Origin: Candidatus Doudnabacteria bacterium
Lineage (GTDB): Bacteria; Patescibacteriota; Doudnabacteria; UBA920; O2-02-FULL-48-8
Assembly: GCA_016186915.1 (NCBI GenBank)
Contig: JACPKU010000001.1
Span: 1 to 47,425, forward strand
Length of the DNA: 47,425 bases
Reading direction: 5' to 3'
Below, piece by piece: positions 630-45,388 of the stretch. Positions within the stretch are counted from its first letter, which is position 1; every line of letters starts with the position of its first letter. A program made the translations under genes and the position numbers. The notes under the pieces are model-generated. The model searched no databases and was not told where the DNA came from. It saw only the letters and a program-made list of their open reading frames with translations.

Positions 630-736
630 GTTTTAATAGCGCCGCCGAAGTTTCAACGCAGGCGAGGCCCAGCCAGTTCCGTTTGCCTGTCCGCCTCCGG
701 CGGAGATATTTTCAAACAGACACCGCCAAAAAATTT

Positions 737-3585: not shown

Positions 3586-3692
3586 TTGAAATTCTGGCAT
3601 AATGATATGAGTTCTAATTTTGGTTCCTCCTTCGTCCGCCACAGGCGGACTTCGGCGGACGTCGTCAATTAATATTAATTTAAAGTGCTCCG

Positions 3693-12681: not shown

Positions 12682-12758
12682 GGGCCTGTAGCTCAGTTGG
12701 TCAGAGCAAGTGTCTTATACACACTGGGTCGAAGGTTCGAGTCCTTCCAGGCCCACCA
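12682..12758 (+). tRNA. tRNA-Ile (anticodon UAU), CCA encoded
   Basis: Hand-folded cloverleaf. Acceptor GGGCCTG/CAGGCCC, anticodon stem AGTGT/ACACT, loop CTTATAC, T-arm GAAGG-TTCGAGT-CCTTC. Confidence 0.9.
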
Positions 12759-14039: not shown

Positions 14040-14684
14040 ATGAAAGAATTGAACCACAAACAGAAAAAATTATTGGAGTTTATTACAGACGAAATTCAGG
14101 GCCGCGGGCTGCCGCCTAGCGTTTCAGAAATGGCTGCATATTTGAAAGTTAAATCCAAAAATGCGGTTGCTAAAATGCTTAATGTTCTTGAGGACAGCGG
14201 ATTGATTAGACGCTCTGGTAAAGCCAGAGGCGTGGAAGTGTTAACAGCACAAGGTAGTGTTGTGAGTAGAGGGCTTATAAATTTACCAATCATTGGCCGA
14301 ATTACTGCGGGTCTGCCCATGCTGGCAGAAGAGCAGATCGAAGACTGGCTGAATTTACCCACAAGCTTGATTAAGGGACGCAAAGATGTGTTTTTATTGC
14401 GTGTTCAAGGCATGAGTATGAAGGACGCGGGCATCTTGGAGAAAGATTTGGTCTTGGTTAAGCAACAAAAAATCGCAGAACCGGGGGATATTGTGGTGGC
14501 GTTGTTGGAAGACGAGGCCACGGTAAAAAGATTGGTCAAGTCCACCAAAGGTGGATCCGCCTCTGGCGGAAAAGATACCAAATTCTTTTTAAAAGCAGAG
14601 AACAAAGCTTATCCCAATATTTACCCTGAGCACGAATGGTCGATCCAGGGGAAAGTAATCGGAGTTGTTAGGAACCTAGAATAA
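14040..14684 (+). CDS. lexA: LexA repressor carrying an in-frame repeat insertion
   Basis: N-terminal winged HTH (PPSVSEMAAYL), cleavage-site region, and S24 peptidase motifs GMSMKDAGI and VKRL. There is an extra KGGSASGGK loop. Confidence 0.9.
   Translation: MKELNHKQKKLLEFITDEIQGRGLPPSVSEMAAYLKVKSKNAVAKMLNVLEDSGLIRRSGKARGVEVLTAQGSVVSRGLINLPIIGRITAGLPMLAEEQIEDWLNLPTSLIKGRKDVFLLRVQGMSMKDAGILEKDLVLVKQQKIAEPGDIVVALLEDEATVKRLVKSTKGGSASGGKDTKFFLKAENKAYPNIYPEHEWSIQGKVIGVVRNLE
14541..14573 (+). repeat. 33-nt GC-rich double-hairpin element, in-frame copy 1
   Basis: TCCACCAAAGGTGGATCCGCCTCTGGCGGAAAA. It consists of two TCC(R)CC-N3-GG(Y)GGA hairpins. Confidence 0.85.
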
Positions 14685-21539: not shown

Positions 21540-22505
21540 TCAACGCTTGCAGACGACGTTTGTGGGAGGAATCCAGTTGTCGTCAACATCCGGCCAGCTG
21601 TACCGGTCTCTGCTGAGCCTGATGTTCGAGTATTTTTCGCCGTCAAGCGCTCGTCGCGCTGCCTGTTCAGTGACCATGATCGGGACCTTCAGGGCGTGAA
21701 GTGTCCCGTCGATCTTCTTGGCCACGATCAGTTCGTGCTGTCCGGCTGCGACCACTGGCCTAGCATCGCCTTTTGCGCTATTCATCTGAGAGGCCGTGCC
21801 GATGACACAGCCGTCGAGCCGGACTTCCGTATCGCGGCAGAACCTCTCGGATTCGCAGTCGAATCCGACCAATCCCTTGTCTCCAGCCAGGAAGAAAGTC
21901 TGCCAGTCTCTGGCCTGACCAGCTCCGTAGCCGTAGTAGGACGAGTACGGATACCCCCCGAACCCAACGCCGAACTGCGGGTAGACATTCCCGTACCCGC
22001 CGTATGTAACCTGCCGTAGCGGCGCAGTGGCTGCGTTGTATGCTGCCCAGGCGTCGTGCTGGGCCTGATTGACGTCGAGCCAGGTCGGTCCAGTCAGCTG
22101 GACTGCGTCTGACACCACTGCAGAGGCAAGCGAGCGGAACGGTTGCTGCGTCGGAGTTCGTTGCCGGGTTGATTCAGGCAGATCCTGGCTCTGCCTCTGG
22201 ACGTGAAGGGTCCGGCCGTCAATCACCGCTTCGAACCCGTGAGGTTCGAGCAGGGCGTCGATGGCGCCGAGGTAGTTGTCGACGTCCACTTCTCCGTGCC
22301 AGGTGGCGGAGATCGTGTCGTCGAATATGACCCCAAGTCCCATCTGCCTGCCGAGGGCCGTCACGATGTCCGCAATCGGCGTGGGCTCGGTGAACTCCAG
22401 CACGGCAGCCGGATCCGGCTGCTGCGCGGACACGGGTGTGCCGACGCAGACGACGAGCGCGAGGACGAACGAAACGAGCGTGATGAGCGTGTTATGCTTC
22501 GTCAT
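21540..22505 (-). CDS. island ORF7: secreted protein, STN/secretin-N-like + Gly/Tyr-rich + PEGA-like segments
   Basis: Signal peptide (VSAQQ). IADIVTALGRQMGLGVIFDD...ALLEPHGFEAVIDGRTLHV resembles secretin/TonB short N-terminal domains. It also has YGGYGNVYPQFGVGFGGYPYSSYYGYG, and C-terminal EVRLDGCVIGT..AAGQHELIV is PEGA-like. SD is AAAGGAGGG. Confidence 0.75.
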   Translation of the reverse strand: MTKHNTLITLVSFVLALVVCVGTPVSAQQPDPAAVLEFTEPTPIADIVTALGRQMGLGVIFDDTISATWHGEVDVDNYLGAIDALLEPHGFEAVIDGRTLHVQRQSQDLPESTRQRTPTQQPFRSLASAVVSDAVQLTGPTWLDVNQAQHDAWAAYNAATAPLRQVTYGGYGNVYPQFGVGFGGYPYSSYYGYGAGQARDWQTFFLAGDKGLVGFDCESERFCRDTEVRLDGCVIGTASQMNSAKGDARPVVAAGQHELIVAKKIDGTLHALKVPIMVTEQAARRALDGEKYSNIRLSRDRYSWPDVDDNWIPPTNVVCKR

Positions 22506-22648
22506 TGTGATAGCCCTCCTTTGGGCTGGGAAATTGACGCCTTGGAGGGCGCCATCATGTTGTCTATGTCATTCCGGACTCCGATCCGTCTGCCTCCGGC
22601 AGATGAACCAAGTTCAGAATGACATAAAGATGTTTGTTTTGACTCCAA

Positions 22649-22677
22649 ATTCTAGCAAAAAACCCCTTACTTGTCAA
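22649..22677 (-). promoter_or_regulatory. island promoter 3, TTGACA-N14-TGC-TAGAAT
   Basis: On the minus strand, TTGACA at 22677-22672, 17-nt spacer, TAGAAT at 22654-22649. About 137-nt leader to ATG 22505. Confidence 0.6.
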
Positions 22678-22827
22678 GGGTTTTGCGACCCTTCGCCTGA
22701 CTCATCGAGATTTAAAACTAAAGACATTCGCATCATTCGAATCATTCCACGAACGAAAAAAAAGCAAAATAACCGATTAGGATTAAACAGAGCAGGAGCC
22801 TGGCAGATGTTTGCGCGTAATTCCTGC

Positions 22828-22871
22828 CAAAAGAAAGAGGCGCAGCCGACCGTGTGGTCAAAGCTGCGCCC
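22828..22871 (-). terminator. intrinsic terminator after island ORF6
   Basis: GGCGCAGC (22839-22846) pairs with GCTGCGCC (22863-22870). On the minus strand a TCTTTCTTTTGG tract follows. Confidence 0.55.
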
Positions 22872-22922
22872 TGTTTGTGCTTGGGGCGACTCTAGGTCGC
22901 CCGAAGCGGATTGTTTCCTCCT

Positions 22923-23777
22923 CTAGTTTGTATTTGCTACCATCACACCGGACGGCGGTGGGGTGGCTGGCTTGGGCCCGGTCACCAGTTCGTGAAATTC
23001 GATCACGAACTGCGTTCCGATACCGTCGCCATAGTAGCTGGCACCGTCGCCATCATTCACGCCGAGTTGGATGGTGCCGCTTCCAACCACGTCCGGGTCC
23101 CAAATTTTCAGGGACCCGTGGAATTGCCATTCCGTGCACTCGCCGCGAGCGACGCACAGCCTGGCGATGGCAGCCAGGTACGGGGCGTTGTTCGCCCGCA
23201 GAGTCATCCCCTTCGGCCGGAAGTCCCGGCCAACCGGTGCCCACTGACCATTCCGCTTGATCCGGATTGGCCCGTCCGGATCAGCCACGATGTGAGCCCC
23301 GTCGTTGGAGTACACCTCCCCCGATAGTGTCAGCACCGACTTCACCACCAAGGGGATGTAACCTTGGGGTGAGTAGGTCCCGGCGCTCACGACTGGTACC
23401 CTCGGCCGTTCAAGGAGGTTCTTCGCCGCCAGTTTCGCGGCTTGCCGGTATCTCAGTCTCCGGCCGTCTGCCTTGCCGAAGCTGAGCAGTTCTCGACCGA
23501 ACTGCTCGTCGTCTCCGCCGACGAGCAGTTGGAGCTCTGGCTCTGCCTGACCGACCTTGGCGACTTCGTGATCGTCCGCCATGTAGTCGATCATCCGAAG
23601 CCCGGCCTCGGAGCGGGGATGGAGGTATCGGTCTAGGGCAGGGATTATTCCCCAGGTCGCACCGTAGTAAACCCCCGCAGTGATGAGCGCGAATTTTGCC
23701 CACCATGCGAGTTTCGACCACAGCCAGCGGAGAGGGGCGAAGAGCCCCTGAACGAACGAACGAATTCTGCTAAACAT
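22923..23777 (-). CDS. island ORF6: N-terminally anchored protein with possible LecA/PA-IL-like lectin domain
   Basis: TM helix AKFALITAGVYYGATWGIIPAL. C-terminal IQLGVNDGDGASYYGDGIGTQFVIEF resembles the PA-IL lectin ND...Y.DN.G.F.V.I signature (weak). SD is AAGGGGGGAG. Confidence 0.7.
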   Translation of the reverse strand: MFSRIRSFVQGLFAPLRWLWSKLAWWAKFALITAGVYYGATWGIIPALDRYLHPRSEAGLRMIDYMADDHEVAKVGQAEPELQLLVGGDDEQFGRELLSFGKADGRRLRYRQAAKLAAKNLLERPRVPVVSAGTYSPQGYIPLVVKSVLTLSGEVYSNDGAHIVADPDGPIRIKRNGQWAPVGRDFRPKGMTLRANNAPYLAAIARLCVARGECTEWQFHGSLKIWDPDVVGSGTIQLGVNDGDGASYYGDGIGTQFVIEFHELVTGPKPATPPPSGVMVANTN

Positions 23778-24030
23778 GGACTCCCCCCTTCTTTTTCATG
23801 ACAAGCAATCCAATGATCACGGCCAGAACCACGACTGGCCTCAGAGTGACCGGCACGTCGCTGAGCTTGCTTGCGACTTCGCCAGTTTTCTCCTTGAGCC
23901 AGTGGAACGCATTGGCCGTGCTGTCACGAATACCTTGGAACCACGACTCATTGCCGCCTGCCGTGGGTTTTGGATCGTTGCCAAGCCGCATGCGGTCGAT
24001 CGCGACCAGGTCGGCGTTGGCCTGTGCCAA
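23770..24030 (-). CDS. island ORF5: small tail-anchored membrane protein
   Basis: C-terminal TM helix PVVVLAVIIGLLVM followed by KKKGG. 8-nt overlap with ORF6. Start is uncertain (TTG at 24030 or ATG at 23991). Confidence 0.5.
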   Translation of the reverse strand: MAQANADLVAIDRMRLGNDPKPTAGGNESWFQGIRDSTANAFHWLKEKTGEVASKLSDVPVTLRPVVVLAVIIGLLVMKKKGGVHV

Positions 24031-24048
24031 TACCGTCTGGATTTCCGG

Positions 24049-24624
24049 TTATACCAGCGTGGCAGTGCACCGGAATGGTCCAGTCGAGACTCTCTTCGCT
24101 TCGTCCCACCCCCAGCAGTTGTCTGTCCCGACTTTCTGATAGACCGCTGAGAGCTTGGTGCGCAGCTCCGCCTCGGCCTTGCTGCCCATCTGGCGGCGGT
24201 AGAGGATGAGAAACTCCCTCATCCGCGTGCCGAGGGGATCGAGGCCAGAGGCGATCCGGACATCCAGATCTTCCGCGCGACGCCGGGCTGCTTGTTCTGT
24301 GTGCGGCGGTAGGAGCCCGTAGAGAAGCTCCTTGAGGTCCTGCTGCAGGCTGGGGATGATTCTGAAACCCACACCCAGCAGAACCATGCCGAGGATGACC
24401 ATCCCGGCGATCCGGACCATGCGATCGTCGATCGTCGCCGCCGGGCGAAGGTGATCGATCAGCACTGCCGAGAGCACGAGGATGAGCAGCCCGGAAGTGA
24501 TCGCCCCGCCGGCTGAGGTGCCTAGCAGTGCGTTGATCGTAGGGCCGATCACTAGCACGGCCCCAGCAGCAACGGCGATTTTGGTGGCCAGTGTCTGGCC
24601 ACCACCGGGTGTTGTGTCAGGCAT
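24049..24624 (-). CDS. island ORF4: polytopic membrane protein, unknown function
   Basis: Three TM segments, then a charged soluble tail. The start lies 6 nt after the ORF3 stop, with a GAGGGG SD. Confidence 0.65.
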   Translation of the reverse strand: MPDTTPGGGQTLATKIAVAAGAVLVIGPTINALLGTSAGGAITSGLLILVLSAVLIDHLRPAATIDDRMVRIAGMVILGMVLLGVGFRIIPSLQQDLKELLYGLLPPHTEQAARRRAEDLDVRIASGLDPLGTRMREFLILYRRQMGSKAEAELRTKLSAVYQKVGTDNCWGWDEAKRVSTGPFRCTATLV

Positions 24625-24630
24625 GGCCCC

Positions 24631-26175
24631 TCACTTTCCGATTCCGAAAAGTTTTCTCAGGCCGCGGGAGATTGGTCCCAGCAGTTCCAGGACTTCATCC
24701 ACAGCCAGAATACCCAAAATCCAACGCCAAATGCCTCGGGTGGGTTCACTGCCCTTCCCGCTTCTTCGAGGCGGGCGTTTGGAACCACCAGCCAGGACAC
24801 GGGCGAGTGCGGCCAGCCACGAGGCTGAGCCGCTTCGCTGAGCGCGTTCGGTCTTCTTCTCTGCCCAGGCCTGCAGTTCGTCTGCGAAGGCCAGGAAGGT
24901 GTAGAAGAAGGTGCCGAGCCACATCAGCGCCAGAGTCACCAACCGTTTGATCCAACCCAGTAGCGATTGGTCTGGCAGGAGCCAGCGTGCGACCGGGTTG
25001 AGCGTCCGTTGTGTGAGACCTGGCCTTTCGGACCCGGTTTCTGTCTCTGCCTGTTCGAGTAGTCCGGACTGTCGGAGTTCCTCGATTTCGGCGTCTGTGC
25101 CCGAGTAGCCGAAACGTTCCAAGTTGGAAGCCCGCTGCTGTGCCTCGGTCATCTCACTGCGAGAAACGAAGCTAGGCAGGGGTTCCGGAGTGCCTGGCAC
25201 CCAGATTGTGACAAGGACAGCCACAAGGAGTGCGAGCCAGCAGGTGATGACCCAGACGGTCCACCACCGGTTGTTCGTACCCATGATCCCTTCGAGCCGC
25301 TGGTTGAGCCTCTTCGCCGTGGCCTCGCCTCCCCGGAAGAGACTAATTGCCCAGTAACTCGCTACACTCATTGCGATCAGGCTGGGAAGCAGGAAGCTGC
25401 CGAACCAGACGGTGAGCAAGGCGAACAGCGGTAGCCAGCTCCAGAAGAACCGAAGCTGTGGGTTGCCGCCTTCCCATTCGGCGATGAGGTGCTTGATCGT
25501 GCCGGCTCCGGGTGCGACCGCAGGCGCGCTGGCCTTCGGTCCGTGCAAGACCAGGTCGTAGGACTTGTTGAGCCCCTCCACGAAGATGTCGATCTCCGTG
25601 CGAGGCTCTTCGACTTCGAATTCCCACGACATTCCGCCTTCCGGCACATCCAGGTCACGAATGATGCTGCCGGCGGCGTAGTCCGTGCCGTTGAGTCTGA
25701 CAGCTTCCACTGGCCGCAGGCGGAGCTTGACGGCCTTGGAGTTGTTTTGATCGTTCTTCACGATCAGATGAACCGAGTACCGGTTCGGCGCCAGTCGCCG
25801 CGGCAGCCAGTGGAGCTCGTAGCTCAACAGATCTTCCGTGGCCTTGACCTTAACTGGCACACTGACCGTGGTTTCACGAAACGCGACACCGTCCACGGTC
25901 TCAGCCTTGAGCTTGGTCTGGGCGATGCTGTCCGGAACCTTAAAGATCCATTCAGCCTCACCCTGCAGGTTGGTCGTCGGCATGTTACCGGCTTCCGCGA
26001 TACCATCGCGGGAAAACGCGATAACCTTGCCGTTGATCGGGTTGCCGTCTTGCGTGAAGACTGCCTTCACCTTGACCTCACGCTTGTCTGTGATTTCAGT
26101 CACCAACAGGGTGAGGTTGGTTCGGGGCCTGGGAGGCCCGCCTCCTCTTCTGCCTCGTCCTCTTCCATTTGGCAT
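24631..26175 (-). CDS. island ORF3: RG-rich N-terminus + beta-sandwich-like modules + multi-TM protein, unknown function
   Basis: Start set at MPNGRGRGRRGGG (ATG 26175, GGAGGA 5 nt upstream). About 220 aa of beta-rich sequence, then at least 4 TM helices and amphipathic segments. Confidence 0.75.
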   Translation of the reverse strand: MPNGRGRGRRGGGPPRPRTNLTLLVTEITDKREVKVKAVFTQDGNPINGKVIAFSRDGIAEAGNMPTTNLQGEAEWIFKVPDSIAQTKLKAETVDGVAFRETTVSVPVKVKATEDLLSYELHWLPRRLAPNRYSVHLIVKNDQNNSKAVKLRLRPVEAVRLNGTDYAAGSIIRDLDVPEGGMSWEFEVEEPRTEIDIFVEGLNKSYDLVLHGPKASAPAVAPGAGTIKHLIAEWEGGNPQLRFFWSWLPLFALLTVWFGSFLLPSLIAMSVASYWAISLFRGGEATAKRLNQRLEGIMGTNNRWWTVWVITCWLALLVAVLVTIWVPGTPEPLPSFVSRSEMTEAQQRASNLERFGYSGTDAEIEELRQSGLLEQAETETGSERPGLTQRTLNPVARWLLPDQSLLGWIKRLVTLALMWLGTFFYTFLAFADELQAWAEKKTERAQRSGSASWLAALARVLAGGSKRPPRRSGKGSEPTRGIWRWILGILAVDEVLELLGPISRGLRKLFGIGK

Positions 26176-26335
26176 GTCTGTCCTCCATCGCGCTTTTGGC
26201 GCGGAAACATACTCCACAAAAAGGAGCGATTGAATATATTGAAAGACCGGTTTATTTCACCCGATCTGTTGCTCGGTTGTTAAAGAACCCGTTAGCATGT
26301 TTCCGCACTTAAGCGGGCAGACATGGTAACGTCGC

Positions 26336-26364
26336 ATATTAGCAAAAAAGCCCTGTTTTGTCAA
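26336..26364 (-). promoter_or_regulatory. island promoter 2, TTGACA-N14-TGC-TAATAT
   Basis: On the minus strand, TTGACA at 26364-26359, 17-nt spacer, TAATAT at 26341-26336. About 154-nt leader. Confidence 0.6.
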
Positions 26365-26450
26365 TGGCCGCGAATTTACAAGTTTGAGGGTTTATAAATA
26401 TTCAAATAGCTTACAAAATTAGCGATAGCTAAGAATGTAAGATAGGATTT

Positions 26451-26540
26451 TTATAAAAAAGAGGGTGCTCACTTCGCGATGAAGTGTACACCCTCTGTGT
26501 TGTTCCGGACCCTTTTCGCTCGGGGAGAGCGAAAAGGGTC
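26451..26540 (-). terminator. two tandem hairpins terminating island ORF2
   Basis: A 14-bp perfect stem GACCCTTTTCGCTC/GAGCGAAAAGGGTC at 26508-26540. Then AGAGGGTG.../...CACCCTCT at 26460-26496, followed on the minus strand by TTTTTTATAA. Confidence 0.7.
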
Positions 26541-26554
26541 ACGGGATAGTCATC

Positions 26555-28009
26555 CTATCGCGGCGGGCGCTGCGGCGGGATCGGTTCGAAATGCGGTTTC
26601 GGCGGCATGTCCTGGCCTGGGACGTCGCCGATGATAATGCCGGTCCGCGACTGCTGCTTCTGTCCAAGCTCGGCCACTCGGGCGTTCAGTTGCCGTATCA
26701 TCCGGTCGCGCACCTCCTCGTTGAGAGTGCGCTTGACGCCGAGCATGCCCAGCGGGCCGCGCTTGGGCACGTCCTTGTCTGCGACCTCCATCACTCCTCG
26801 AAGAGCCTCGATGGCGTCCTCTTGGGAGCGATCGGCGCGGTACTGCGCCTCGTTGGCCTTCGCCTCCACGGTCTGGAGCTTGGAGGCGAGGTCGGATCGG
26901 AGATTGGCCACGGCTGTCTCGATGCGTTGCGGCAGTGTCTCGGCGAGACTGCGAACCTCGCCGATTGAGGAGTGGAGCGTGGAAACGTCGGTCTCCAGCT
27001 TGTTTTTGATGGCCGTGTCCGAGGCCTCAGCGTTCTTGCGCGCGGCCTCGATCAGCGCTCTGATACGCTGGTCGCGCTCCGTGAGCTTGCCGTTGAGGTA
27101 ATCAACGGCGTCGGCCACCTCCTCGGAGAAGATGGTGAACAGGACGCCGCCGGAGTCGATGCATTCGCCGGTGCCACAGTCTGTCGTGCCTTTGGGGCGC
27201 AGCAGAAACGTGACCGCGCCGACGTCAGTGTTGTCAGCGATTGCGAGCTTGGCGCTCACCTTGTTCGCGCTCGCTGCGACGTCGTTGGCCGTCACACCAG
27301 CCGGGAACAGCACTGACTCGACGTCAGCCAGTCCCGTTCCAGTGATCACGACTTCGACTTCAGATCCGCGGACCCAGGCATCCGGCGTGATGCCAGACAC
27401 CTTGCCTTGGACCTGGGCGAACGCGGTGTTCGCGGATAGCCCGAGGCAGCAGGTCAGGAAGATGGCTGGCACCGCGGGTCTGCGTGGCACACGGGGCCGC
27501 ACCAGGACGATCAGCACGCCGATTACCAGAACGAAGATCCCCAGGCCACCGAAGATCCCCAGGCCACCGTAGAGCAGCCAGTTGAGCTTCTGGTGCAGAC
27601 GCTCGACACGCCGTCCGATGAGGTCTGGACTCCAGCGTGCGTCTTGCCCGTAGGTATTGTTGATGTTCCTTGAAGCCGTGACCAGGGCATCACGCACAGT
27701 GATTGGATTTTCCTGCGCGTCTTTGCTGATCTCCTGGTCGAGATCGAGCCAATAGCCGACTATCATCGCGTCTGGTTCGGCGGCCGGTTCCTCTGCAGGT
27801 GGCGTTGTCGGTGCTTCGGGCGCTGGCGTCGACTCGGGCTCTAGCTCCGGCTCCGTGGTGGGTTCGTTCTGCTGCGGCGTTGCCGGCGGCTCGGCCGGCT
27901 TCACGATCTCGGGGAGGCGCGGCTGGCGCATACGCTGTTGCGCCTCCAAGCTATTGCTCGCCGCGATGAGTGCGGCGAGTCCGAGAACGAACGCGATGAT
28001 GCGGTTCAT
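26555..28009 (-). CDS. island ORF2: secreted/membrane protein with Pro/Glu-rich linker, IPT/TIG-like domain and long coiled coil
   Basis: Signal peptide (SLEAQQ), P/E/T-rich stretch, a TM with duplicated GGLGIF, a second signal/lipobox-like segment (FLTCCLGLSANTAFAQ), a beta domain (VEVVITGTGL), and ~150 aa of heptad-like sequence. SD is AAGGAGAG. Confidence 0.75.
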   Translation of the reverse strand: MNRIIAFVLGLAALIAASNSLEAQQRMRQPRLPEIVKPAEPPATPQQNEPTTEPELEPESTPAPEAPTTPPAEEPAAEPDAMIVGYWLDLDQEISKDAQENPITVRDALVTASRNINNTYGQDARWSPDLIGRRVERLHQKLNWLLYGGLGIFGGLGIFVLVIGVLIVLVRPRVPRRPAVPAIFLTCCLGLSANTAFAQVQGKVSGITPDAWVRGSEVEVVITGTGLADVESVLFPAGVTANDVAASANKVSAKLAIADNTDVGAVTFLLRPKGTTDCGTGECIDSGGVLFTIFSEEVADAVDYLNGKLTERDQRIRALIEAARKNAEASDTAIKNKLETDVSTLHSSIGEVRSLAETLPQRIETAVANLRSDLASKLQTVEAKANEAQYRADRSQEDAIEALRGVMEVADKDVPKRGPLGMLGVKRTLNEEVRDRMIRQLNARVAELGQKQQSRTGIIIGDVPGQDMPPKPHFEPIPPQRPPR

Positions 28010-31488: not shown

Positions 31489-31569
31489 AAAACGATTAAA
31501 TCACAAATACCAAACCCCAAAAGTTCAAATGTTTGGAGTTTGTTGCTTGTGATTTGGAGCTTATAAATT
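31489..31569. repeat. A-word/T-word inverted repeat, family 1, short copy
   Basis: Left arm AAATCACAAATACCAAACCCCAAA versus right arm TTTGGAGTTTGTTGCTTGTGATTT. About 20 of 24 positions are complementary, with a 10-nt loop. Confidence 0.6.
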
Positions 31570-32253
31570 ATGGACTTATCCGAGTTAGAAAAAAAAATAA
31601 AAATAAAATTTAGGGATCAGACCTTGCTACAAACAGCGTTAACTCACCGTTCTTACCTGAATGAGAATCGAGGCTGGGGACTGCCGCACAACGAACGATT
31701 GGAGTTTTTGGGAGACGCGGTTTTGGAATTGATCACCACTGAATATCTTTACCTTAACTATTCCGAACCAGAAGGAGAATTGACCAATTTTCGGTCAGCC
31801 TTGGTGAACTATAAGATACTTTCAGAGATTGCGGCAAGTTTGGATTTGGACAAATTTATTTTACTGTCCAGAGGAGAGGCGAAAGACACGGGCAGGGCGA
31901 GGCAAGTGATACTGGCTAACGCGATTGAGGCGCTGATTGGCGCAATTTATCTTGACGGTGGATTTGAGGTCGTAAAGCAATTTATTTATACAAACATTAT
32001 TACCAGACTGGATGGAATAATAAACGCCGGCAAAGTTGTGGATCCAAAAAGTAAGCTACAGGAGCTGGTGCAAGAAAAGATTGGCGTCACCCCTCATTAC
32101 GAGGTTATTGCGGAATGGGGACCGGACCATAACAAAAATTTTGAGGTCGGGGTGTTTGTCGACAAGGAACAAATTGCCAAAGGGACAGGCTCTTCCAAGC
32201 AGGAAGCGGAAATTGCGGCTGCCCAAAACGGCCTTAAAGTTTCGGATTTTTGA
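31570..32253 (+). CDS. rnc: ribonuclease III
   Basis: RNase III signature ERLEFLGDAVL and a C-terminal dsRBD (GTGSSKQEAEIAAA). Confidence 0.95.
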   Translation: MDLSELEKKIKIKFRDQTLLQTALTHRSYLNENRGWGLPHNERLEFLGDAVLELITTEYLYLNYSEPEGELTNFRSALVNYKILSEIAASLDLDKFILLSRGEAKDTGRARQVILANAIEALIGAIYLDGGFEVVKQFIYTNIITRLDGIINAGKVVDPKSKLQELVQEKIGVTPHYEVIAEWGPDHNKNFEVGVFVDKEQIAKGTGSSKQEAEIAAAQNGLKVSDF

Positions 32254-32321: not shown

Positions 32322-34460
32322 ATGTATCTTAAACGCCTTGAACTCCATGGATTTAAGTCCTTTGCTCACAAAACCGTTTTAGATTTTGACCCAGGCATGA
32401 CCGCCGTCGTCGGCCCCAACGGTAGCGGCAAATCAAACGTGGCGGACGCGCTCAGATGGGTTATGGGCGAACAGTCCCTAAAGCTTTTGCGAGGGAAGAA
32501 ATCCGAGGATGTAATTTTTGCAGGTTCTGACAAAAAATCCAAACTCAGCATGGCTGAAGTGTCTTTGACTTTTGACAATAAAGACAGAAAAATGCCTTTG
32601 GAGTATATGGAGGTAGTGATTAGCCGACGTTTATACCGCAACGGCGAATCAGAGTACTTGATCAATAACCAACGCGCAAGACTTTTGGACATCGTTGACG
32701 TTTTGCTTGCCTCTGGGTTTGGGGGGACCAACTACGCCGTGATTGGGCAGGGCACCATAGATAACATGGTCTTGGCAGGGCCAAGTGAAATTAAGTCTTT
32801 AGTGGAGGAGGCCGCCGGTGTCAAGCCCTACTACATTAAACGAGACAAAACCAAAAGAAGACTTGAGCAAACCGAAGAAAATTTGTCATCTATCACAGCT
32901 TTAATCAACGAAATCGAGCCTCGATTGCGCTCGCTTAAACGTCAGGCCAAGCGGATGGAGGAGCGGGAAACGGTTGCGAACGAGTTGGCCTTATTGCAGT
33001 TACAGTTCTTCGGCCAGCAACTTGCGGTGCTTAAGACCGAGCTTTCGGCGACCAGCGAGCAAGTGGCGTTGAAAGACACGGCGGTTAAAAAGTTGGAAGC
33101 GGAAGTTGCCGGTTTTGAAAAGAGTTGGGACAAAGAAGAGCAGCAAACTGAGCAAGCGGAAATTTTTTTGGAAGAGCTAGAGAAAAAACTGGCGGAATTA
33201 GAAAGTCGACGGCTGGTTTTAGTGGAACAGTTGGCAGAAATCAAAGGGAAACTTAAAGTAGAAGTCCCGGTGACTAAAAATTTTTCGGAATTCCGGCAGA
33301 AATTCGAGGCGATCTTAGATTTATTGCGAGCAGAAAACGTCGAGGAGATCAAGCACAAGTTGCGAGAACTAGTTTCTCTATTTGGTGAGTCAAAAAACGA
33401 AGAACTGTTAAAACAAAAGAAGGTTTTGAGCCAAGAATTGGAGCAGATCGTTGCGGAAATGAACGAACAGAGAAGAGTAAAGCAACAGATGGAAGCGGAA
33501 GCCAAGCAAAAGAAGAATTTTTTGTCTGAAGAAGAAAAAAAGTTCCGCGCTAAGAGTTCGGAGATTATCCGGGTCAAGGACGAGCTAAATAAACTGCTGG
33601 TAGAGAAAGCTAAACTGGACACTCGCTTGGAGAGCTTGACTCACGAAGCGAAAGAAGCTTTGGGCCAGAGATACGAAGAGTTGTCTAATTATAAGTCTGG
33701 GCAAATTATTGCCGATCTACCGAATAAAATTTCCAGATTAAAACGACAACTGGAAATGACAGGCGGTGTGGACGAGGTGGTGCTTACCGAATACAGAGAG
33801 ACCAGTGAGCGGTTTGAATATTTGTCGGGGCAGCTAAAAGATTTAACCAAGGCAGTTGAGGACCTTCAAAGTGTAATCGAAGAACTGGATGAGATAATCA
33901 AAACTCAATTCAACGAAGCATTCCATAAAATTTCTCAAAAATTTGCAGAATATTTCCGTATTCTTTTTAATGGCGGCCGGGCGCAGATGAATCTTATTAA
34001 AGCCGAAGTCGGAGAAGTGGCCGAAGATGGTATGGATGACCTCTCCCCCGACCCCTCTCCTCCGGAGGAGAGGGGAGTTCTAAGTAGAAGAGAATCAAAG
34101 GAGATCGTGGGGATTGAAGTTAAAGCAACACCGCCGGGAAAAAAACTAGCCTCAATCACGGCGCTTTCCGGCGGCGAACGAGCATTGACTGCGATCGCCT
34201 TGCTTTGCAGTTTTTTGGCTTGCTATCCTTCCCCTTTCGTGGTGCTGGATGAGGTGGATGCGGCCTTGGACGAAGCAAATTCATTGCGGTTTGCGAAAAT
34301 TTTGGGGACACTTGCTCATCAAACACAATTTATCACCATTACTCATAACCGCGAAACCATGCGTCAAGCCCACACTCTTTATGGGGTGACCATGGATGAT
34401 CATGGGGTGTCTAAGATTCTCTCGCTTAAATTAGACAAAGCAGAAGAAATCGCAGAATAA
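32322..34460 (+). CDS. smc: SMC-family chromosome condensation ATPase, unusually short (712 aa)
   Basis: N-terminal head MYLKRLELHGFKSF...GPNGSGKSN. C-terminal LSGGERALTAIAL and VLDEVDAALD. Only ~390 aa of coiled coil lies between them, and I saw no hinge. Confidence 0.85.
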   Translation: MYLKRLELHGFKSFAHKTVLDFDPGMTAVVGPNGSGKSNVADALRWVMGEQSLKLLRGKKSEDVIFAGSDKKSKLSMAEVSLTFDNKDRKMPLEYMEVVISRRLYRNGESEYLINNQRARLLDIVDVLLASGFGGTNYAVIGQGTIDNMVLAGPSEIKSLVEEAAGVKPYYIKRDKTKRRLEQTEENLSSITALINEIEPRLRSLKRQAKRMEERETVANELALLQLQFFGQQLAVLKTELSATSEQVALKDTAVKKLEAEVAGFEKSWDKEEQQTEQAEIFLEELEKKLAELESRRLVLVEQLAEIKGKLKVEVPVTKNFSEFRQKFEAILDLLRAENVEEIKHKLRELVSLFGESKNEELLKQKKVLSQELEQIVAEMNEQRRVKQQMEAEAKQKKNFLSEEEKKFRAKSSEIIRVKDELNKLLVEKAKLDTRLESLTHEAKEALGQRYEELSNYKSGQIIADLPNKISRLKRQLEMTGGVDEVVLTEYRETSERFEYLSGQLKDLTKAVEDLQSVIEELDEIIKTQFNEAFHKISQKFAEYFRILFNGGRAQMNLIKAEVGEVAEDGMDDLSPDPSPPEERGVLSRRESKEIVGIEVKATPPGKKLASITALSGGERALTAIALLCSFLACYPSPFVVLDEVDAALDEANSLRFAKILGTLAHQTQFITITHNRETMRQAHTLYGVTMDDHGVSKILSLKLDKAEEIAE
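34052..34075. repeat. perfect 24-nt palindrome inside smc
   Basis: CCCCTCTCCTCC|GGAGGAGAGGGG, translated as PSPPEERG within an apparent extra loop before the C-terminal head. Confidence 0.85.
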
Positions 34461-34599
34461 AAATCCCAAATGACAAATAACAAAAAACAAATAAGCTCCA
34501 AATCTCCCCGCCTGCCGGCGAGGCAGGAAATCCCAAACTCTTGTTTGGTGCTTGGATATTGTGATTTATTTGCTATTTGATGCTTGATATTTGAAATTT
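34461..34599. repeat. A-word/T-word inverted repeat, family 1, long copy a
   Basis: It fills the entire smc-dedA spacer. The ends match the 45372-45514 copy. It has a central GC hairpin CCTGCC-GGCGA-GGCAGG (34511-34527). Confidence 0.7.
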
Positions 34600-36192: not shown

Positions 36193-36309
36193 AAATGTAA
36201 AAATCAAAAATTAAATATCAAAATGTAACTAAAAGTGCAAAAAGCATTAAATTCTCTTTTTAATTTTATTTTTTCATTTTGCGTTTTGACCTTTGCAATT
36301 TGAATTTTT
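36193..36309. repeat. A-word/T-word inverted repeat, family 2, long copy a
   Basis: AAATGTAAAAATCAAAAATTAAATATCAAAATGTAA... is roughly 90% identical over its first ~55 nt to the 41934-42049 copy. It ends directly at the trmD ATG. Confidence 0.7.
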
Positions 36310-37020
36310 ATGAATTTTATCATCTTAACTTTGTTCCCAGAGGCTTTTGAATCTTATTTTAAAATAAGCCTGATTAAACGCGCAGTAAAAAAGAGACTGA
36401 TTAAGCTACAACTAGTCAACCTTAGGGATTACGCAAAAGACAATCATAAAACGGTTGACGGCCGGCCATACGGCGGCGGGGCAGGGATGGTTCTCCGCGT
36501 GGATATATTAGATCGCGCGTTGCGCGATTTAAAGTCAAAGGTCAAAAGTCAAAGGTCAAAAGTTGTTTTACTATCTCCGCAGGGTAAAAAGTTTGATCAA
36601 AAATTGGCTTTAAAACTTTCTCACCTTAGAACTTTAATACTGATCTGTGGCCGCTACGAAGGTTTTGATGAAAGGATCCGTAAACTTGTTGATCTGGAAG
36701 TGTCTTTGGGTGATTTTGTATTGACTGGTGGAGAGATCCCGGCGATGGCAGTTCTTGATACAGTTGCCAGGCTTGTTCCAGGTGTAGTAGGCAAAGAAGC
36801 ATCTTTGGATGAAGAAAGTTTTTCCGATAATTTGTTGGAATACCCGCAATACACCAGACCCGAGGTTTATTCCGCCAAAGGCGGATCCGCCTCCGGCGGA
36901 AAGAAAATGAGAGTTCCAAAAGTTTTGCTTTCTGGCGATCATAAAAAAATCGCACAATGGCGCAAGAAAGAATCTCTGAAGCGCACCAAGAAGCGAAGAC
37001 CGGATTTATTGAAAGTCTAG
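36310..37020 (+). CDS. trmD: tRNA (guanine37-N1)-methyltransferase TrmD carrying an in-frame repeat insertion
   Basis: VDGRPYGGGAGMVL, ICGRYEGFDERI and GDFVLTGGEIPA motifs, plus an extra AKGGSASGGK loop. Confidence 0.93.
   Translation: MNFIILTLFPEAFESYFKISLIKRAVKKRLIKLQLVNLRDYAKDNHKTVDGRPYGGGAGMVLRVDILDRALRDLKSKVKSQRSKVVLLSPQGKKFDQKLALKLSHLRTLILICGRYEGFDERIRKLVDLEVSLGDFVLTGGEIPAMAVLDTVARLVPGVVGKEASLDEESFSDNLLEYPQYTRPEVYSAKGGSASGGKKMRVPKVLLSGDHKKIAQWRKKESLKRTKKRRPDLLKV
36871..36903 (+). repeat. 33-nt GC-rich double-hairpin element, in-frame copy 2
   Basis: TCCGCCAAAGGCGGATCCGCCTCCGGCGGAAAG. Confidence 0.85.
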
Positions 37021-44224: not shown

Positions 44225-45388
44225 ATGAATGAACAATTCGAAACGGCACTGAATCAGATTGCTGAAGAAAAGGACATAGATAAGGCTGAGATTCTCAACA
44301 TGATTGAGGTTTCTTTAGCTGCGGCATTCCGCAAGGATTACGGCAAGAAAGACCAGAACATAGTAGTTGAGTTTTTGCCAGAGACTTTGGGGACCAAGGT
44401 TTTTGATGTGAAAAAGGTGGTTGAGGTAGTGGAAGATACAGCAAAGGAAATTTCTTTGGATGATGCGAAAAAATTGTCCGCCAAAGGCGGATCCGCCTCT
44501 GGCGGAAAAAAAACAGCCAAAATTGGCGATGAAATCAGAACTGACATTACCCCTAAAACTGGGGCGAAATTTGGCCGCATCGCAGCCCAGACCGCCAAGC
44601 AAGTGATCGTGCAGAAAATCCGCGAAGCTGAGCGCGGGGTGCTGTTTACGGATTTTAAATCTAAGGAGCGGCAGCTGGTCTCTGGAATGATCCAGCGGCT
44701 TGAAGGCGAAACTGTGTTGGTTGATCTGGGTAAGGCCACAGGAGTCTTGTTTCCTTCCGAACAAATCAAAGGCGAAAAATACAACATGGGAAGCAGGATC
44801 AAGGTCCTTATTTTGCACGTTGAGCCAACTGCTAAGGGTCCGAAAATTACTTTATCCCGATCGCACCCTGACGTGGTGCGCCGGCTGTTCGAATTGGAAG
44901 TGCCCGAGATTCACAACGGCATCGTGGAAATCAAGGGCGTCTCGAGAGAAGCGGGGTCTAGAAGCAAGGTTGCTGTCTGGTCTTCACAAGACGGCGTGGA
45001 TCCGATAGGCGCTTGTGTCGGCCAGCGTGGCAGTAGAGTGCAAGTGGTGATGAACGAACTGAGCGGAGAAAAGATTGATATTATTTCTTGGTCCGAAGAT
45101 TCCGTGAAGTTTATTGCCAATGCCCTTTCCCCCGCCAAAATTTTAAATGTTGAACTCAACGAGGCGGCCAAAGAAGCTAAAGTGGGCGTGCTTTCTGATC
45201 AGCTCTCTTTAGCAATTGGCAAGGCCGGACAAAATGTTAGGTTGGCGGCAAGACTGACTGGTTGGAAGATTGATATTATGGAAGAGAAGATTGCCGGGGA
45301 GGAAACTAAAGAACCGGAAGAAGCAGAAGCGGTGGTTGGAGAAAAGCCAGCAGAAGGAACTAATGGAGAAATTCCAAATGACAAATAA
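44225..45388 (+). CDS. nusA: transcription termination/antitermination factor NusA carrying an in-frame repeat insertion
   Basis: FGRIAAQTAKQVIVQKIREAER, an S1 domain, and two KH domains (GACVGQRGSRV, AIGKAGQNVRLA). There is an extra AKGGSASGGK loop in the N-terminal domain. Confidence 0.95.
   Translation: MNEQFETALNQIAEEKDIDKAEILNMIEVSLAAAFRKDYGKKDQNIVVEFLPETLGTKVFDVKKVVEVVEDTAKEISLDDAKKLSAKGGSASGGKKTAKIGDEIRTDITPKTGAKFGRIAAQTAKQVIVQKIREAERGVLFTDFKSKERQLVSGMIQRLEGETVLVDLGKATGVLFPSEQIKGEKYNMGSRIKVLILHVEPTAKGPKITLSRSHPDVVRRLFELEVPEIHNGIVEIKGVSREAGSRSKVAVWSSQDGVDPIGACVGQRGSRVQVVMNELSGEKIDIISWSEDSVKFIANALSPAKILNVELNEAAKEAKVGVLSDQLSLAIGKAGQNVRLAARLTGWKIDIMEEKIAGEETKEPEEAEAVVGEKPAEGTNGEIPNDK
44477..44509 (+). 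repeat. 33-nt GC-rich double-hairpin element, in-frame copy 3
   Basis: TCCGCCAAAGGCGGATCCGCCTCTGGCGGAAAA. Confidence 0.85.

Follow-up and report, generated by a model that had tools for sequence, protein, structure and literature searches.

Each of three genes within the 47,425-nucleotide stretch of DNA analysed here (the window), namely lexA, trmD and nusA, carries in frame an insert of exactly 30 nt that consists of two tandem hairpins and that we refer to as DH. The same element was encountered at at least 120 loci in a genome scan, where about 0.03 would be expected by chance, and orthologs of the three host genes overwhelmingly lack it. We consider it probable that DH are widespread miniature palindromic elements, non-autonomous and dependent on their hairpins, which are mobilised in trans, behave selfishly and are filtered through the peptide that they encode.

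All three copies are located on the plus strand at the positions that a sequence-only reading of the window had given, and the host genes were identified by Pfam (table). Their translations follow the common frame that had been claimed, yielding STKGGSASGGK in LexA and SAKGGSASGGK in both TrmD and NusA, and in each copy the two proposed tandem hairpins are found according to the pattern TCCRCC-N3-GGYGGA-TCCGCC-N3-GGCGGA. Also, the paired G>A / C>T exchange described for the first stem of the lexA copy is present and leaves this stem complementary (TCCACC/GGTGGA). However, the unit is not 33 nt long, as had been stated, because a comparison of filled with empty orthologous sites gives a difference of exactly 30 nt; the trailing AAA or AAG is a lysine codon of the host gene and lies outside the element, since empty sites have it as well. 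With up to three mismatches allowed, the 33-mer is found in the window only as these three copies and as its own reverse complement, and it was not obtained in any of 100 shuffles; chance does not explain the three copies.

Double-hairpin copies, host genes and other hairpin relatives in the window
Feature	Position	Strand	Description
Single hairpin	690..704		TCCGCC-TCC-GGCGGA; upstream of NUDIX gene
Decayed intergenic DH copy	3635..3659		TCCGCC-ACA-GGCGGA-C-TTC-GGCGGA; hsp20/infB spacer
Host gene lexA	14040..14684	+	214 aa; Pfam LexA_DNA_bind and Peptidase_S24
DH copy in lexA	14541..14570	+	TCCACC-AAA-GGTGGA TCCGCC-TCT-GGCGGA, encoding STKGGSASGG
Adjacent hairpins (candidate relative)	22589..22618		TCTGCC-TCC-GGCAGA and TGAAC-CAA-GTTCA
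Host gene trmD	36310..37020	+	236 aa; Pfam tRNA_m1G_MT
DH copy in trmD	36871..36900	+	TCCGCC-AAA-GGCGGA TCCGCC-TCC-GGCGGA, encoding SAKGGSASGG
Host gene nusA	44225..45388	+	387 aa; Pfam NusA_N, S1 and KH_5
DH copy in nusA	44477..44506	+	TCCGCC-AAA-GGCGGA TCCGCC-TCT-GGCGGA, encoding SAKGGSASGG

When the window was searched for the single-hairpin pattern with up to two mismatches, 12 matches were obtained, compared to 1.76 expected. The decayed copy in the hsp20/infB spacer corresponds to a DH element that has lost 5 nt from the 5' arm of its second hairpin. The 15 nt that precede the hairpin upstream of the NUDIX gene may be a decayed first hairpin, as 16 of 24 stem positions match, and the pair of adjacent hairpins at 22589-22618 is a possible divergent relative; its first stem (TCTGCC/GGCAGA) is also found in metagenome copies, the order of its loops, however, is reversed.

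Comparison with orthologs distinguishes between an insertion and an ancestral loop. The ten residues are missing from 116 of 120 close orthologs of LexA, from 115 of 120 of TrmD and from 118 of 120 of NusA, whereas the respective sites are filled in four, in four (plus one decayed) and in two orthologs. The protein lengths reflect this, LexA orthologs without the insert having 204 residues compared to 214 in the window, and TrmD orthologs mostly 225-226 compared to 236. At the DNA level, the empty lexA site reads GTN AAR|AAA GAY and filled sites contain an exact 30-nt insert without target-site duplication; similarly, filled and empty alleles of trmD and nusA differ by exactly 30 nt and show no such duplication. 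The sequence-only reading had named one outcome as refuting its proposal, namely that orthologs from distant lineages specify this peptide through unrelated nucleotides; this did not occur. In a statistical test, direct repeats flanking the copies were not in general excess, and a small surplus is due to 5-6 copies that lie inside AT-rich heptamer-like tandem repeats, not to target-site duplication.

Filled orthologs of LexA, TrmD or NusA never form a clade and their closest relatives are empty. For example, the filled LexA L121 shares 97.6% protein identity with the empty L129, and the filled LexA L122 shares 93.7% with the empty L131. The inserts of filled genes are 80-83% identical, whereas third-codon identity among these host genes is about 43%, which is saturated. 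This distribution points to recurrent insertion of DH at identical sites or else to its precise loss, and the 3, 4 and 2 independent hits on the same nucleotide in LexA, TrmD and NusA, respectively, would require strong target specificity, a very small number of tolerated sites, or precise loss. TrmD of another lineage carries DH at a second site. The three TrmD copies that were compared at the DNA level have identical loops (AAA/TCC), which could indicate that these copies descend from a common ancestor, and the NusA copy of L252 is changed at synonymous positions only, hinting at some constraint at the protein level. Decay of copies is also seen, the stem being broken in L121, the element expanded in P0131 and part of it deleted at 3635-3659, and hairpin 1 is strongly different between the sister sequences P0002 and P0004.

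The sequence-only reading had proposed that each host protein is about ten residues longer at exactly this place than its E. coli and B. subtilis homologs. In agreement with this, solved structures of E. coli LexA, H. influenzae TrmD (4MCB) and T. maritima NusA (1HH2) align with a gap of about ten residues there, a 10-residue gap lying opposite the trmD insert in 4MCB and exactly opposite the nusA insert in 1HH2. Mapping onto AlphaFold2 models, which had been suggested, placed the LexA and TrmD inserts in coil or loop regions: residues 168-177 of LexA form a coil with pLDDT <50 between the strands E160-167 and E182-188, and the TrmD insert forms a coil with short strands on either side (E186-188 and E199-201). 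The inserts thus fall in surface loops of their host proteins.

The consensus of DH is (ttt)TCCGCC-nRA-GGCGGA-TCCGCC-TYn-GGCGGA(aaa), which corresponds to two hairpins with 6-bp stems and 3-nt loops. Folded as two hairpins, the lexA copy has a free energy of -18 kcal/mol as RNA (z = -3.9) and of -11.5 kcal/mol as DNA (z = -5.3). When sites were anchored on hairpin 2 only, a perfect 6-bp/3-nt hairpin was found directly upstream in 53 of 123 cases, and 28 of these 53 had stems that were non-canonical yet fully complementary, compared to a mean of 2.1 (maximum 8) in 2000 shuffles. A formal covariation count on 75 rows, which had been chosen for their resemblance to the element, gave 94% pairing for hairpin 1 with 48 cells changed on both sides, a result reached by 0 of 500 shuffles. 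Among 256 hairpins there were 5 with a compensated A..T pair, against 9 with A.C and 3 with G.T (Fisher p = 1.2e-5), and the A..T pair in the first stem of the lexA copy belongs to this recurrent compensated class. Compensatory changes occurred within hairpins and never across them, although this cross-test is only partly informative as the search itself had fixed hairpin 2. For perfect copies, ViennaRNA favours a single long hairpin, or cruciform, but the compensatory changes back two local hairpins. Judged by this covariation, what is conserved in DH is the tandem two-hairpin fold and not a fixed sequence.

The flanks of the element are T-rich on the 5' side and A-rich on the 3' side, with A at 62, 82 and 58% of positions +1 to +3, and just 3' of the element T amounts to 2-4% at +1/+2 on both strands. 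The loop positions A9 and T22 are complementary in 92% of cases. An intrinsic terminator was rejected as an explanation, given the lack of a U-tract, the scarcity of T behind the stem and the absence of any predicted terminator near the lexA copy. A scan of the window against Rfam 15 returned rRNA and tRNAs alone at the gathering score; the best sub-threshold match at the nusA copy, ctRNA_pGA1 with 24.6 bits against a threshold of 45 bits, is at chance level.

The genome to which the window belongs is of the Patescibacteria, and its best relatives are Candidatus Doudnabacteria MAGs. A setting in CPR-like genomes, as had been suggested, is correct for the host, but DH is not specific to CPR, since copies occur in several other phyla: organism labels among the matches listed include many Patescibacteria classes, Kiritimatiellae, Lentisphaerae, Omnitrophota, Ignavibacteriota, Melainabacteria, Chloroflexota and Planctomycetes. 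DH was found solely in metagenome-assembled genomes, which derive from many studies and assemblers and include two long contigs, one of 0.87 Mb from Doudnabacteria (CAWINB010000004.1) and one of 1.63 Mb from Ignavibacteriota (CAWHAG010000001.1). Among the hosts confirmed by Pfam are RpoC, RpoB, DnaE (twice), AspRS (twice), GyrA, AtpD, TsaD, CysRS, PGK, GltB and T9SS sorting domains. Of 128 copies among the matches listed, 80 lie inside ORFs of at least 200 residues, and the genic share of about 55-65% is large for copies that insert at random and are then purged. Copies also occur in intergenic DNA, where they have the same sequence, and in other frames. The element had no match in 72,556 plasmids (PLSDB), 20,395 E. 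coli records or 50,697 GenBank phages, and 2.9 million viral contigs contained only 3 matches, each of them at the end of a gene; a phage or plasmid vector was rejected on these results.

DH comprises 10 codons and is free of stop codons in all six frames, and one of its frames encodes Ser-Ala-x-Gly-Gly twice, whichever the orientation. Among the matches listed, frames 0, 1 and 2 were used in a ratio of 69 : 4 : 7 in ORFs of at least 200 residues and of 52 : 1 : 5 in ORFs of at least 300 residues, and the metagenome sample gave 28 : 4 for frame 0 against the other two. About 86-90% of the copies in long ORFs thus use the frame SAxGGSAxGG. All six variants with TCAGCC..GGCTGA, which contain TGA in frame 0, lie outside long ORFs. 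Reading of this TGA as glycine under genetic code 25 was considered and rejected, as the variants are intergenic and no long ORFs use TGA as a sense codon. We infer that the bias in frame is due to selection and not to the insertion mechanism.

According to the mechanism that we propose, DH would enter as an exact 30-nt unit without a target duplication and with a preference for T-rich|A-rich junctions, and a factor whose gene lies at another place in the genome would recognise the folded single-stranded element, be it single-stranded DNA from replication or transposition, or RNA. The conservation of intrastrand pairing over sequence suggests recognition in a folded single-stranded form, and a single-stranded substrate is what we infer for DH. 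Copies in the Ser-Ala-x-Gly-Gly frame within surface loops would be near-neutral and persist even in essential genes, whereas copies in other frames or with a stop codon would be purged from genes. Presence and absence among orthologs, together with the distribution of copies, suggest that DH is or has been actively mobile and that it is selfish. Regarding the mobilising gene, 0.89 Mb of loci showed no enrichment of any gene family around copies, and all-against-all clustering of 1,288 ORFs revealed no recurrent neighbour, with at most 5 of 123 loci per family. A tblastn search of 1.68 Mb with an IS200 TnpA sequence as the query detected one IS200-like TnpA, at locus L075; it was discarded as the mobiliser, its end hairpins being unrelated to DH.

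Other origins of DH have to be weighed against mobilisation in trans. It is unlikely that DH is an ancient functional cis-signal, serving RNA processing, RNA stability or ribosome pausing or as the DNA site of a conserved factor, which was inserted once per site and repeatedly lost with precision. Strong covariation maintaining both hairpins, identities of 80-100% among inserts compared to about 43% at third positions of the host genes, the identical loops of TrmD copies and the near absence of T 3' of the element on both strands, as though termination were avoided, would all suit such a signal. However, it would demand dozens of independent exact 30-nt losses at sites without flanking microhomology, and it sits poorly with the visible decay (L121, P0131 and 3635-3659), with the difference in hairpin 1 between the sisters P0002 and P0004, with the unrelated host genes and positions, with intergenic and out-of-frame copies and with the lack of a match to an Rfam family. 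A DNA-uptake or recombination drive signal, in which a palindrome preferred by the competence machinery, on which these reduced bacteria rely, is spread by biased uptake and homologous replacement, seems very improbable to us. Known uptake sequences (USS/DUS) have a density of roughly 1 per kb, against 3 intact DH copies in 47 kb, and they are made by point mutation and not by a 30-nt insertion; furthermore, a motif recognised as double strand would not predict covariation of stems, and flank identity of filled alleles is not raised, so that no mark of a recombination tract is seen. On the other side, USS/DUS also occupy tolerated reading frames of genes, one motif is common to many co-occurring lineages, genome-maintenance and information-processing genes are prominent as hosts, non-sister lineages carry filled alleles at the same site, and the window contains a gene cluster that is type IV pilin-like as judged by synteny with L124.

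Could the element instead arise locally and anew, by template switching or fold-back synthesis at A-rich sites, with selection on the peptide causing convergence on NCCNCC...GGNGGN? Fold-back copying would explain perfect stems and, by the logic of the genetic code, the complement of GGN GGN (Gly-Gly) is NCC NCC (Ser/Pro/Thr/Ala), so that peptide selection favours such stems. Yet empty sites hold no template for the 30 nt, intergenic copies have the same sequence although no peptide is selected there, and independent events would not repeat the same 24 stem bases as well as A9/T22 across phyla; we give this origin very little credence. Still more improbable is that the insert reflects a low-complexity loop of the ancestral protein or an error of sequencing or assembly, even if Gly/Ser/Ala-rich loops are common and DH comes from metagenome-assembled genomes only, because nucleotide identity extends to synonymous positions and to non-coding copies, the loop is missing from 115-118 of 120 orthologs, many studies, assemblers and long contigs (0.87 and 1.63 Mb) are involved, and orthologous copies contain ordinary point mutations.

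Returning to trans-mobilised selfish elements, a wider proposal, which we advance tentatively as a serious possibility, is that DH is a class of bacterial mobile DNA smaller than any known so far, consisting of codon-adapted 30-nt double hairpins that insert seamlessly at preferred sites and repeatedly at the same codon boundary of orthologous essential genes. The hairpin-recognising machinery would be common to, or exchanged among, several uncultivated phyla, and flexible loops of ten residues would have been added to core proteins, among them RNA polymerase, DNA polymerase III, gyrase, ATP synthase and aminoacyl-tRNA synthetases. Searches of the full-text literature, in which sequence and peptide strings were included, did not find a published description of DH, which looks previously undescribed.

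If DH are indeed mobile in this way, CPR genomes, which rank with the most gene-dense known (about 90% coding), would host a repeat that is harmless when translated, which would answer the lack of room for insertions, and the copies would constitute a natural experiment on the tolerance of essential proteins towards loop insertion. The recurrent strings SAxGGSAxGG, PPxADPPxAE and RxRRIRLxRK in metagenomic protein predictions would be explained, and filled and empty sites could be used as strain-level population markers for uncultivated bacteria. The pattern would also imply an activity for seamless integration that relies on the structure of DNA or RNA and would be of interest to mobile-DNA biology and genome engineering, and identical stems across phyla would raise the question of horizontal exchange among episymbionts, hosts and neighbours.

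Rickettsia palindromic elements (RPEs), to which the sequence-only reading had compared the copies, are roughly 100-150 bp long, confined to Rickettsia and regarded as selfish DNA that is tolerated at the protein surface. The comparison holds for behaviour, in that dispersed hairpin-forming palindromes lie in frame in genes, housekeeping genes included, and orthologs lack the insert. It does not extend to membership in the RPE family, as DH is about four times shorter and present in other phyla; with its 30 nt, two minimal hairpins, many host phyla, one strongly preferred frame and reuse of identical sites it differs from RPEs. No sequence relationship is apparent, and the two are set apart by RPE length and host range, not by alignment. 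RPEs are mentioned in PMC1779305 and PMC10969869.

REP, BIME and REPIN sequences are GC-rich imperfect palindromes of 20-40 nt in many copies, and the folded single strand of REP is recognised by a Y1/HUH enzyme (RAYT, TnpA-REP) that is encoded elsewhere, without target duplication (PMC3733652, PMC8266576, PMC3116915). DH resembles them as a short GC-rich palindrome in many dispersed copies. However, REPs are extragenic and bear a GTAG or CGTC tag, whereas DH is mostly intragenic with TTT/AAA flanks and no tag, and REP sequences are lineage-specific with a linked RAYT, whereas DH stems are common across phyla and no linked gene was seen in the loci analysed. Mitochondrial hairpin elements reside in spacers, rRNA genes and occasionally protein genes, and their mobility has been inferred without a known enzyme. 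These double-hairpin elements, GC clusters and repetitive hairpin-forming elements are short GC-rich single or double hairpins dispersed in compact AT-rich genomes (PMC2800124, which also cites the Allomyces double-hairpin elements). Unlike DH, they belong to organelles, their sequences are particular to a lineage and most of them are non-coding. We know of no comparable frame rule described for them, nor of their presence in dozens of bacterial essential genes.

Coxiella QMITEs and enterobacterial units of the RU/ERIC type are small, non-autonomous repeats and are sometimes found in frame within ORFs, adding peptide segments (PMC5896051, PMC2759123, PMC2229807). MITEs, however, have at least 100 bp, terminal inverted repeats, target-site duplications and an identifiable parent IS, whereas DH has 30 nt and makes no duplication, and the loci examined did not reveal a parent IS. 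Members of IS200/IS605 transpose by 'peel-and-paste', with hairpins at their ends, a single-stranded substrate, a short target motif, no duplication and seamless excision. TnpA-REP is related to IS200/IS605 (PMC8266576). The likeness of IS200/IS605 to DH is a mechanistic analogy only, as their guide and cleavage sequences lie outside the hairpins, their length exceeds 600 bp and the derived PATEs are much longer than DH.

The three sequences that the sequence-only reading had given for the double-hairpin (DH) element in lexA, trmD and nusA were confirmed exactly, and translation confirmed one common reading frame for all three, S(T/A)KGGSASGG followed by K. When the window was searched with the 33-mer, allowing up to 3 mismatches, only the three copies and their own reverse complements were matched, the latter because the sequence is a near-perfect palindrome, and none of 100 dinucleotide-preserving shuffles gave a match. 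The single-hairpin pattern TCCGCCNNNGGCGGA (up to 2 mismatches) matched 12 times in the window (1.76 expected), and the DH family was also recovered independently by a repeat finder as repeat family D5. No recognisable transposase was found among the window ORFs scanned.

Positions of host genes and associated features in the window and in other DNA loci (L-numbers)
Feature	Position	Observation
LexA host ORF	window 14040-14684	Pfam LexA_DNA_bind + Peptidase_S24
TrmD host ORF	window 36310-37020	Pfam tRNA_m1G_MT
NusA host ORF	window 44225-45388	Pfam NusA_N, S1, KH
Two adjoining small hairpins	window 22589-22618	TCTGCC-TCC-GGCAGA and TGAAC-CAA-GTTCA
Spacer repeats	window 36194-36310, 41934-42046, 45369-45517, 34447-34609, 31532-31572	related long AT-rich imperfect inverted repeats
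tRNA-Ile	window 12682-12758	anticodon TAT (UAU), uncommon; AUA is read in most bacteria by a lysidine-modified CAU tRNA
Four consecutive large ORFs (321, 284, 528, 484 aa)	window 21540-28009, minus strand	no Pfam match; adjoin a cluster where synteny with L124 suggests T4SS/pilin-like proteins
DH in DnaE, two MAGs	L058 3047; L101 2899	same position, different loops
DH in T9SS C-terminal domains	L033 6021; L047 390; L082 2838	one shared position
DH in NusA, GCA_964360335.1	L252 6001-7254	orthologous copy TCTGCCAAAGGCGGGTCCGCCTCTGGCGGA
Giant ORF (>1,679 aa)	L102 943 and neighbourhood	at least 3 DH-derived segments: FSAVSGSASGGD, FSAVGGSASGGE, FSAGGGPASGGP
IS200-type element, complete-looking	L075 3360-3975	end hairpins CCACTGG..CCAGTGG and CCACCAGC..GCTGGTGG
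IS200-type TnpA gene	L075 3500-3901	42% identical to Salmonella IS200 TnpA
~190-nt intergenic repeat, Kiritimatiellae MAG STD1_155	L002 4484; L005 4569-4752 and 6390-6572; L056 7325	DH at 5' end

In the window spacer repeats, an A-rich arm with a periodicity of about 7 nt is followed by a complementary T-rich arm that reaches up to the next start codon, and several spacers have common segments that are 75-90% identical (repeat families D1-D4, D7 and D8). Of the two adjoining small hairpins, the first has a variant DH stem known from metagenomes, with the loop order reversed; they could be a divergent relative of the DH element or else an unrelated structure.

Of the 120 best-matching LexA relatives, most of them annotated as Candidatus Doudnabacteria, 112 had no insert (203-206 aa or otherwise insert-free), four had 4 extra residues at the DH position, and only four, the window protein and the orthologs P0002-P0004, had ten, located between ...VKRLVK and KD.... 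The empty lexA site reads GTN AAR|AAA GAY, and what filled sites add at the bar is TCC...GGA, precisely 30 nt. The unit therefore measures 30 nt and not 33 nt as first read, since the AAA counted earlier is already present in the empty site and is a host lysine codon outside the element. Inserts of four residues (FARD, GKPG, GKPG and EKTS in P0015, P0035, P0059 and P0065, respectively) lie exactly at the insertion point and could reflect either elements that have been deleted in part or normal variation of the loop. Similarly, 115 of 120 TrmD orthologs were empty, with ten residues at the DH site in four and an 18-residue derivative in one; a second TrmD site, with SAIGGSASGG near residue 72, was occupied in a separate lineage (P0196, P0197, P0208). 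For NusA, 118 of 120 orthologs were empty and, besides the window protein, P0356 was filled at the identical site. No target-site duplication was visible in any filled/empty pair of LexA, TrmD or NusA, and in a statistical test on 128 copies flanking direct repeats were only slightly in excess, owing to a handful of copies within AT-rich tandem repeats. The proposal that each host protein is about 10 residues longer at exactly these loops was borne out by alignments with E. coli LexA (7B5G; gaps totalling ten residues), H. influenzae TrmD (4MCB; 10-residue gap) and T. maritima NusA (1HH2; 10-residue gap). In AlphaFold2 models based on ortholog alignments, strands 160-167 and 182-188 flank the LexA insert, which was modelled as coil with low confidence (moderate model, mean pLDDT 62), and the TrmD insert formed a coil between the short strands 186-188 and 199-201 (mean pLDDT 76).

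Perfect copies can form either two hairpins or one long interrupted hairpin, with minimum free energies of -18 to -22 kcal/mol as RNA (z -3.6 to -5.8) and of -11.5 to -13.5 kcal/mol as DNA. Metagenome contigs were scanned with hairpin 2 alone (TCCGCCTYNGGCGGAAA; at least 120 loci) and the free 15 nt upstream were inspected. A perfectly paired 6-bp/3-nt hairpin was present upstream at 53 of 123 distinct sites, with the canonical stem in 25 and other fully complementary stems in 28 (CCAGCC/GGCTGG 7, TCAGCC/GGCTGA 6, CCCGCC/GGCGGG 4, TCTGCC/GGCAGA 4, singletons eight). Full pairing in 28 of 98 non-canonical rows compares with 2.1 expected from arm shuffling (maximum 8 in 2000). In 75 element-like rows, hairpin 1 was 94% paired and changed on both sides at 5 of 6 pairs (48 cells); selecting these rows by resemblance to the element inflates the pairing but not the double changes. 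None of 500 shuffles came up to the real alignment in paired fraction, in number of double changes or in covariation score; in slid registers of hairpin 1 pairing collapsed to 26-48%. Also, the compensated TCCACC...GGTGGA stem noticed in lexA recurs in the genome sample (5 hairpins versus 9 A.C and 3 G.T; Fisher p = 1.2e-5). In that sample, no compensation was seen at the positions that would pair in the single long-hairpin model. This covariation indicates that the conserved feature is intrastrand pairing of two adjoining minimal hairpins, which argues against a palindrome bound by protein as a double strand and in favour of either a single strand, ssDNA or RNA, or copying by fold-back. Loop 1 follows nRA and loop 2 TYn, with A9/T22 complementary in 92% of copies. 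The pooled 3' flank is A-rich (A 62/82/58% at +1 to +3), with T nearly excluded at +1/+2 (2-4%), and the 5' flank is T-rich.

An exact-pattern scan with TCCRCCNNNGGYGGATCCRCCNNNGGYGGA of one genome per GTDB species returned at least 120 loci, where by our own estimate about 0.03 would be expected by chance (5.7e-14 per site, from 20 fixed plus 4 two-fold positions, taken over 5.96e11 bases). All organisms among the matches listed are MAGs. Exact patterns and samples of at least 120 loci in both genome and metagenome scans underestimate diversity and abundance, taxon frequencies are not representative, and NCBI labels may be unreliable for some binned MAGs. Among the matches listed, Patescibacteria are represented by Kaiser-, Lipton-, Doudna-, Moran-, Magasanik-, Falkow-, Campbell-, Giovannoni-, Terry- and Portnoybacteria and Saccharibacteria, and other groups by Kiritimatiellae, Lentisphaerae, Omnitrophota, Ignavibacteriota, Melainabacteria, Firestonebacteria, Chloroflexota, Planctomycetes, Bacteroidota and one Desulfotomaculaceae. 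Presence outside CPR is corroborated by copies in Por_Secre_tail T9SS domains of Ignavibacteriota-type contigs (assigned from Pfam in L082 and L047 and from sequence context in L033). In other collections the element is almost lacking: viral contigs gave 3 matches in 2.9 M, whereas GenBank phages, PLSDB plasmids and complete E. coli genomes gave none.

Reading frames were assigned from the longest stop-to-stop frame over each of 128 copies among the matches listed, which is approximate unless the host was confirmed by Pfam. Where the ORF is 200 aa or longer, 69 copies were read in frame 0 (SAxGGSAxGG), 4 in frame 1 (PPxADPPxA[ED]) and 7 in frame 2 (RxRRIRLxRK); for at least 300 aa the numbers were 52, 1 and 5. 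An independent metagenome sample gave 28 in frame 0 versus 4 in other frames (ORFs of at least 200 aa). Another 48 of the 128 copies lie in ORFs below 200 aa only and are presumably intergenic. Most non-zero-frame copies are found in roughly the first 30 codons of the open frame, counted from its N-terminal end, and the real start is therefore probably downstream of the copy; genuine frame-2 exceptions by Pfam are found inside a class-V aminotransferase (L069) and apparently inside a YfiH-type protein (L066). Pfam-confirmed frame-0 hosts comprise RpoC, RpoB, DnaE (twice, one site), AspRS (twice, different sites), GyrA, AtpD, TsaD, CysRS, PGK, an MraY-type transferase, GltB and an amylase. The unit spans 10 codons, and its canonical sequence is stop-free in all six frames. 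From the genetic code, NCCNCC...GGNGGN stems would encode small residues in both arms and both orientations, because Gly GGN complements NCC (Ser/Pro/Thr/Ala). TCAGCC...GGCTGA variants place TGA in frame 0, and none of the 6 found lies in a long ORF. Such a hairpin precedes TCCGCC-N3-GGCGGA in L134, L139, L164 (two copies), L189 and L202; reading TGA as a sense codon still gave no long ORF.

When insert columns were masked, insert-bearing proteins did not cluster together in neighbour-joining trees of these short proteins. In LexA, filled L121 (P0002) and empty L129 (P0119) share 97.6% protein and 66% third-codon identity, and filled L122 (P0003) and empty L131 (P0086) 93.7% and 67%; filled lexA genes among themselves share 75-83% and about 43%, the latter close to saturation, despite which their inserts are 80-83% identical. 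The nearest neighbours of each of the 4 filled TrmD proteins are empty, and the other filled NusA, with 78% identity, ranks near the far end of the 120 orthologs, relatives at 86-87% being empty. Two readings fit this pattern, recurrent entry at one codon boundary or precise loss, many times over, of an old insert. Recurrent gain is probably the correct one, because copies visibly decay (two positions are unpaired in the first stem of L121, P0131 is expanded, and hairpin 1 differs strongly between the sisters P0002 and P0004), because flanking microhomology that could guide exact deletion is absent, and because dozens of independent exact losses would be needed. Against recurrent gain counts that three TrmD copies compared at the DNA level share the loops AAA/TCC, which would fit common descent, or equally a source variant that dominates locally, given that the window copies all have AAA/TCY loops. 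The DnaE and T9SS copies are further cases of site recurrence. In the NusA of L252, both differences from the consensus are synonymous, the peptide SAKGGSASGG being retained and hairpin 1 weakened, a hint that old inserts may become constrained at the protein level. The segments in the giant ORF of L102 represent different decay stages inside one gene.

The best-supported interpretation is that the DH element would be a miniature, non-autonomous, hairpin-dependent selfish element, whose mobility we infer and whose surviving genic copies would be filtered by the encoded peptide. The strongest alternative, an ancient selected structural signal that was repeatedly and precisely lost, could accommodate the shared TrmD loops but is disfavoured by the visible decay, the many exact losses required and the arbitrary hosts and positions. 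A drive signal for uptake or recombination is a speculative though conceivable variant. Two features are accounted for only in part, namely the high genic share of copies (about 55-65%) and the reuse of the same codon boundary in 3 of 3 genes examined, which implies strong target specificity beyond a weak T|A preference or very narrow tolerated positions.

When all ORFs of at least 110 aa from the loci were clustered, no gene family proved to be a regular neighbour of the copies (maximum 5 of 123 loci). A tblastn search of 1.68 Mb of loci with an IS200 TnpA query found one gene, in L075 from a Falkowbacteria MAG; a DH copy in cysS is 0.7 kb away from its element, whose own end hairpins are unrelated to DH stems. 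IS200/IS605 and TnpA-REP systems employ single-strand 'peel-and-paste' transposition by Y1/HUH enzymes. The DH element resembles them in inserting seamlessly beside a short motif, in having a hairpin at each end and in producing no duplication, and by analogy only a Y1/HUH-like mechanism (as for TnpA-REP; PMC8266576) may be envisaged. The Kiritimatiellae repeat also holds GTCATTCCGAGCGTAG... and CTTCGACTTCGCTCAGGGC motifs, so that composite forms exist, and lone hairpins in L004 are followed by a similar ...CCCTGAGCGAAGT, which suggests mosaic clusters assembled from several widespread hairpin motifs.

No Rfam family was matched, and no description was found in the full-text literature, nucleotide and peptide strings included; most subscription journals lie outside this coverage and an earlier account is possible. 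As the sequence-only reading had proposed, the behaviour matches that of Rickettsia palindromic elements, although length and host range differ. In contrast to REPs, DH elements are not confined to extragenic DNA and have no GTAG/CGTC tag; they differ from MITEs in target duplication and size, and from terminators by lacking a U-tract. The DH element is classified as palindromic selfish DNA tolerated within coding sequence, a kind already known, but is unusual in its minimal size, codon-adapted symmetry, cross-phylum spread and site recurrence, and in architecture its closest counterparts are found in the mitochondria of fungi and sponges, as double-hairpin and GC-cluster elements (PMC2800124).
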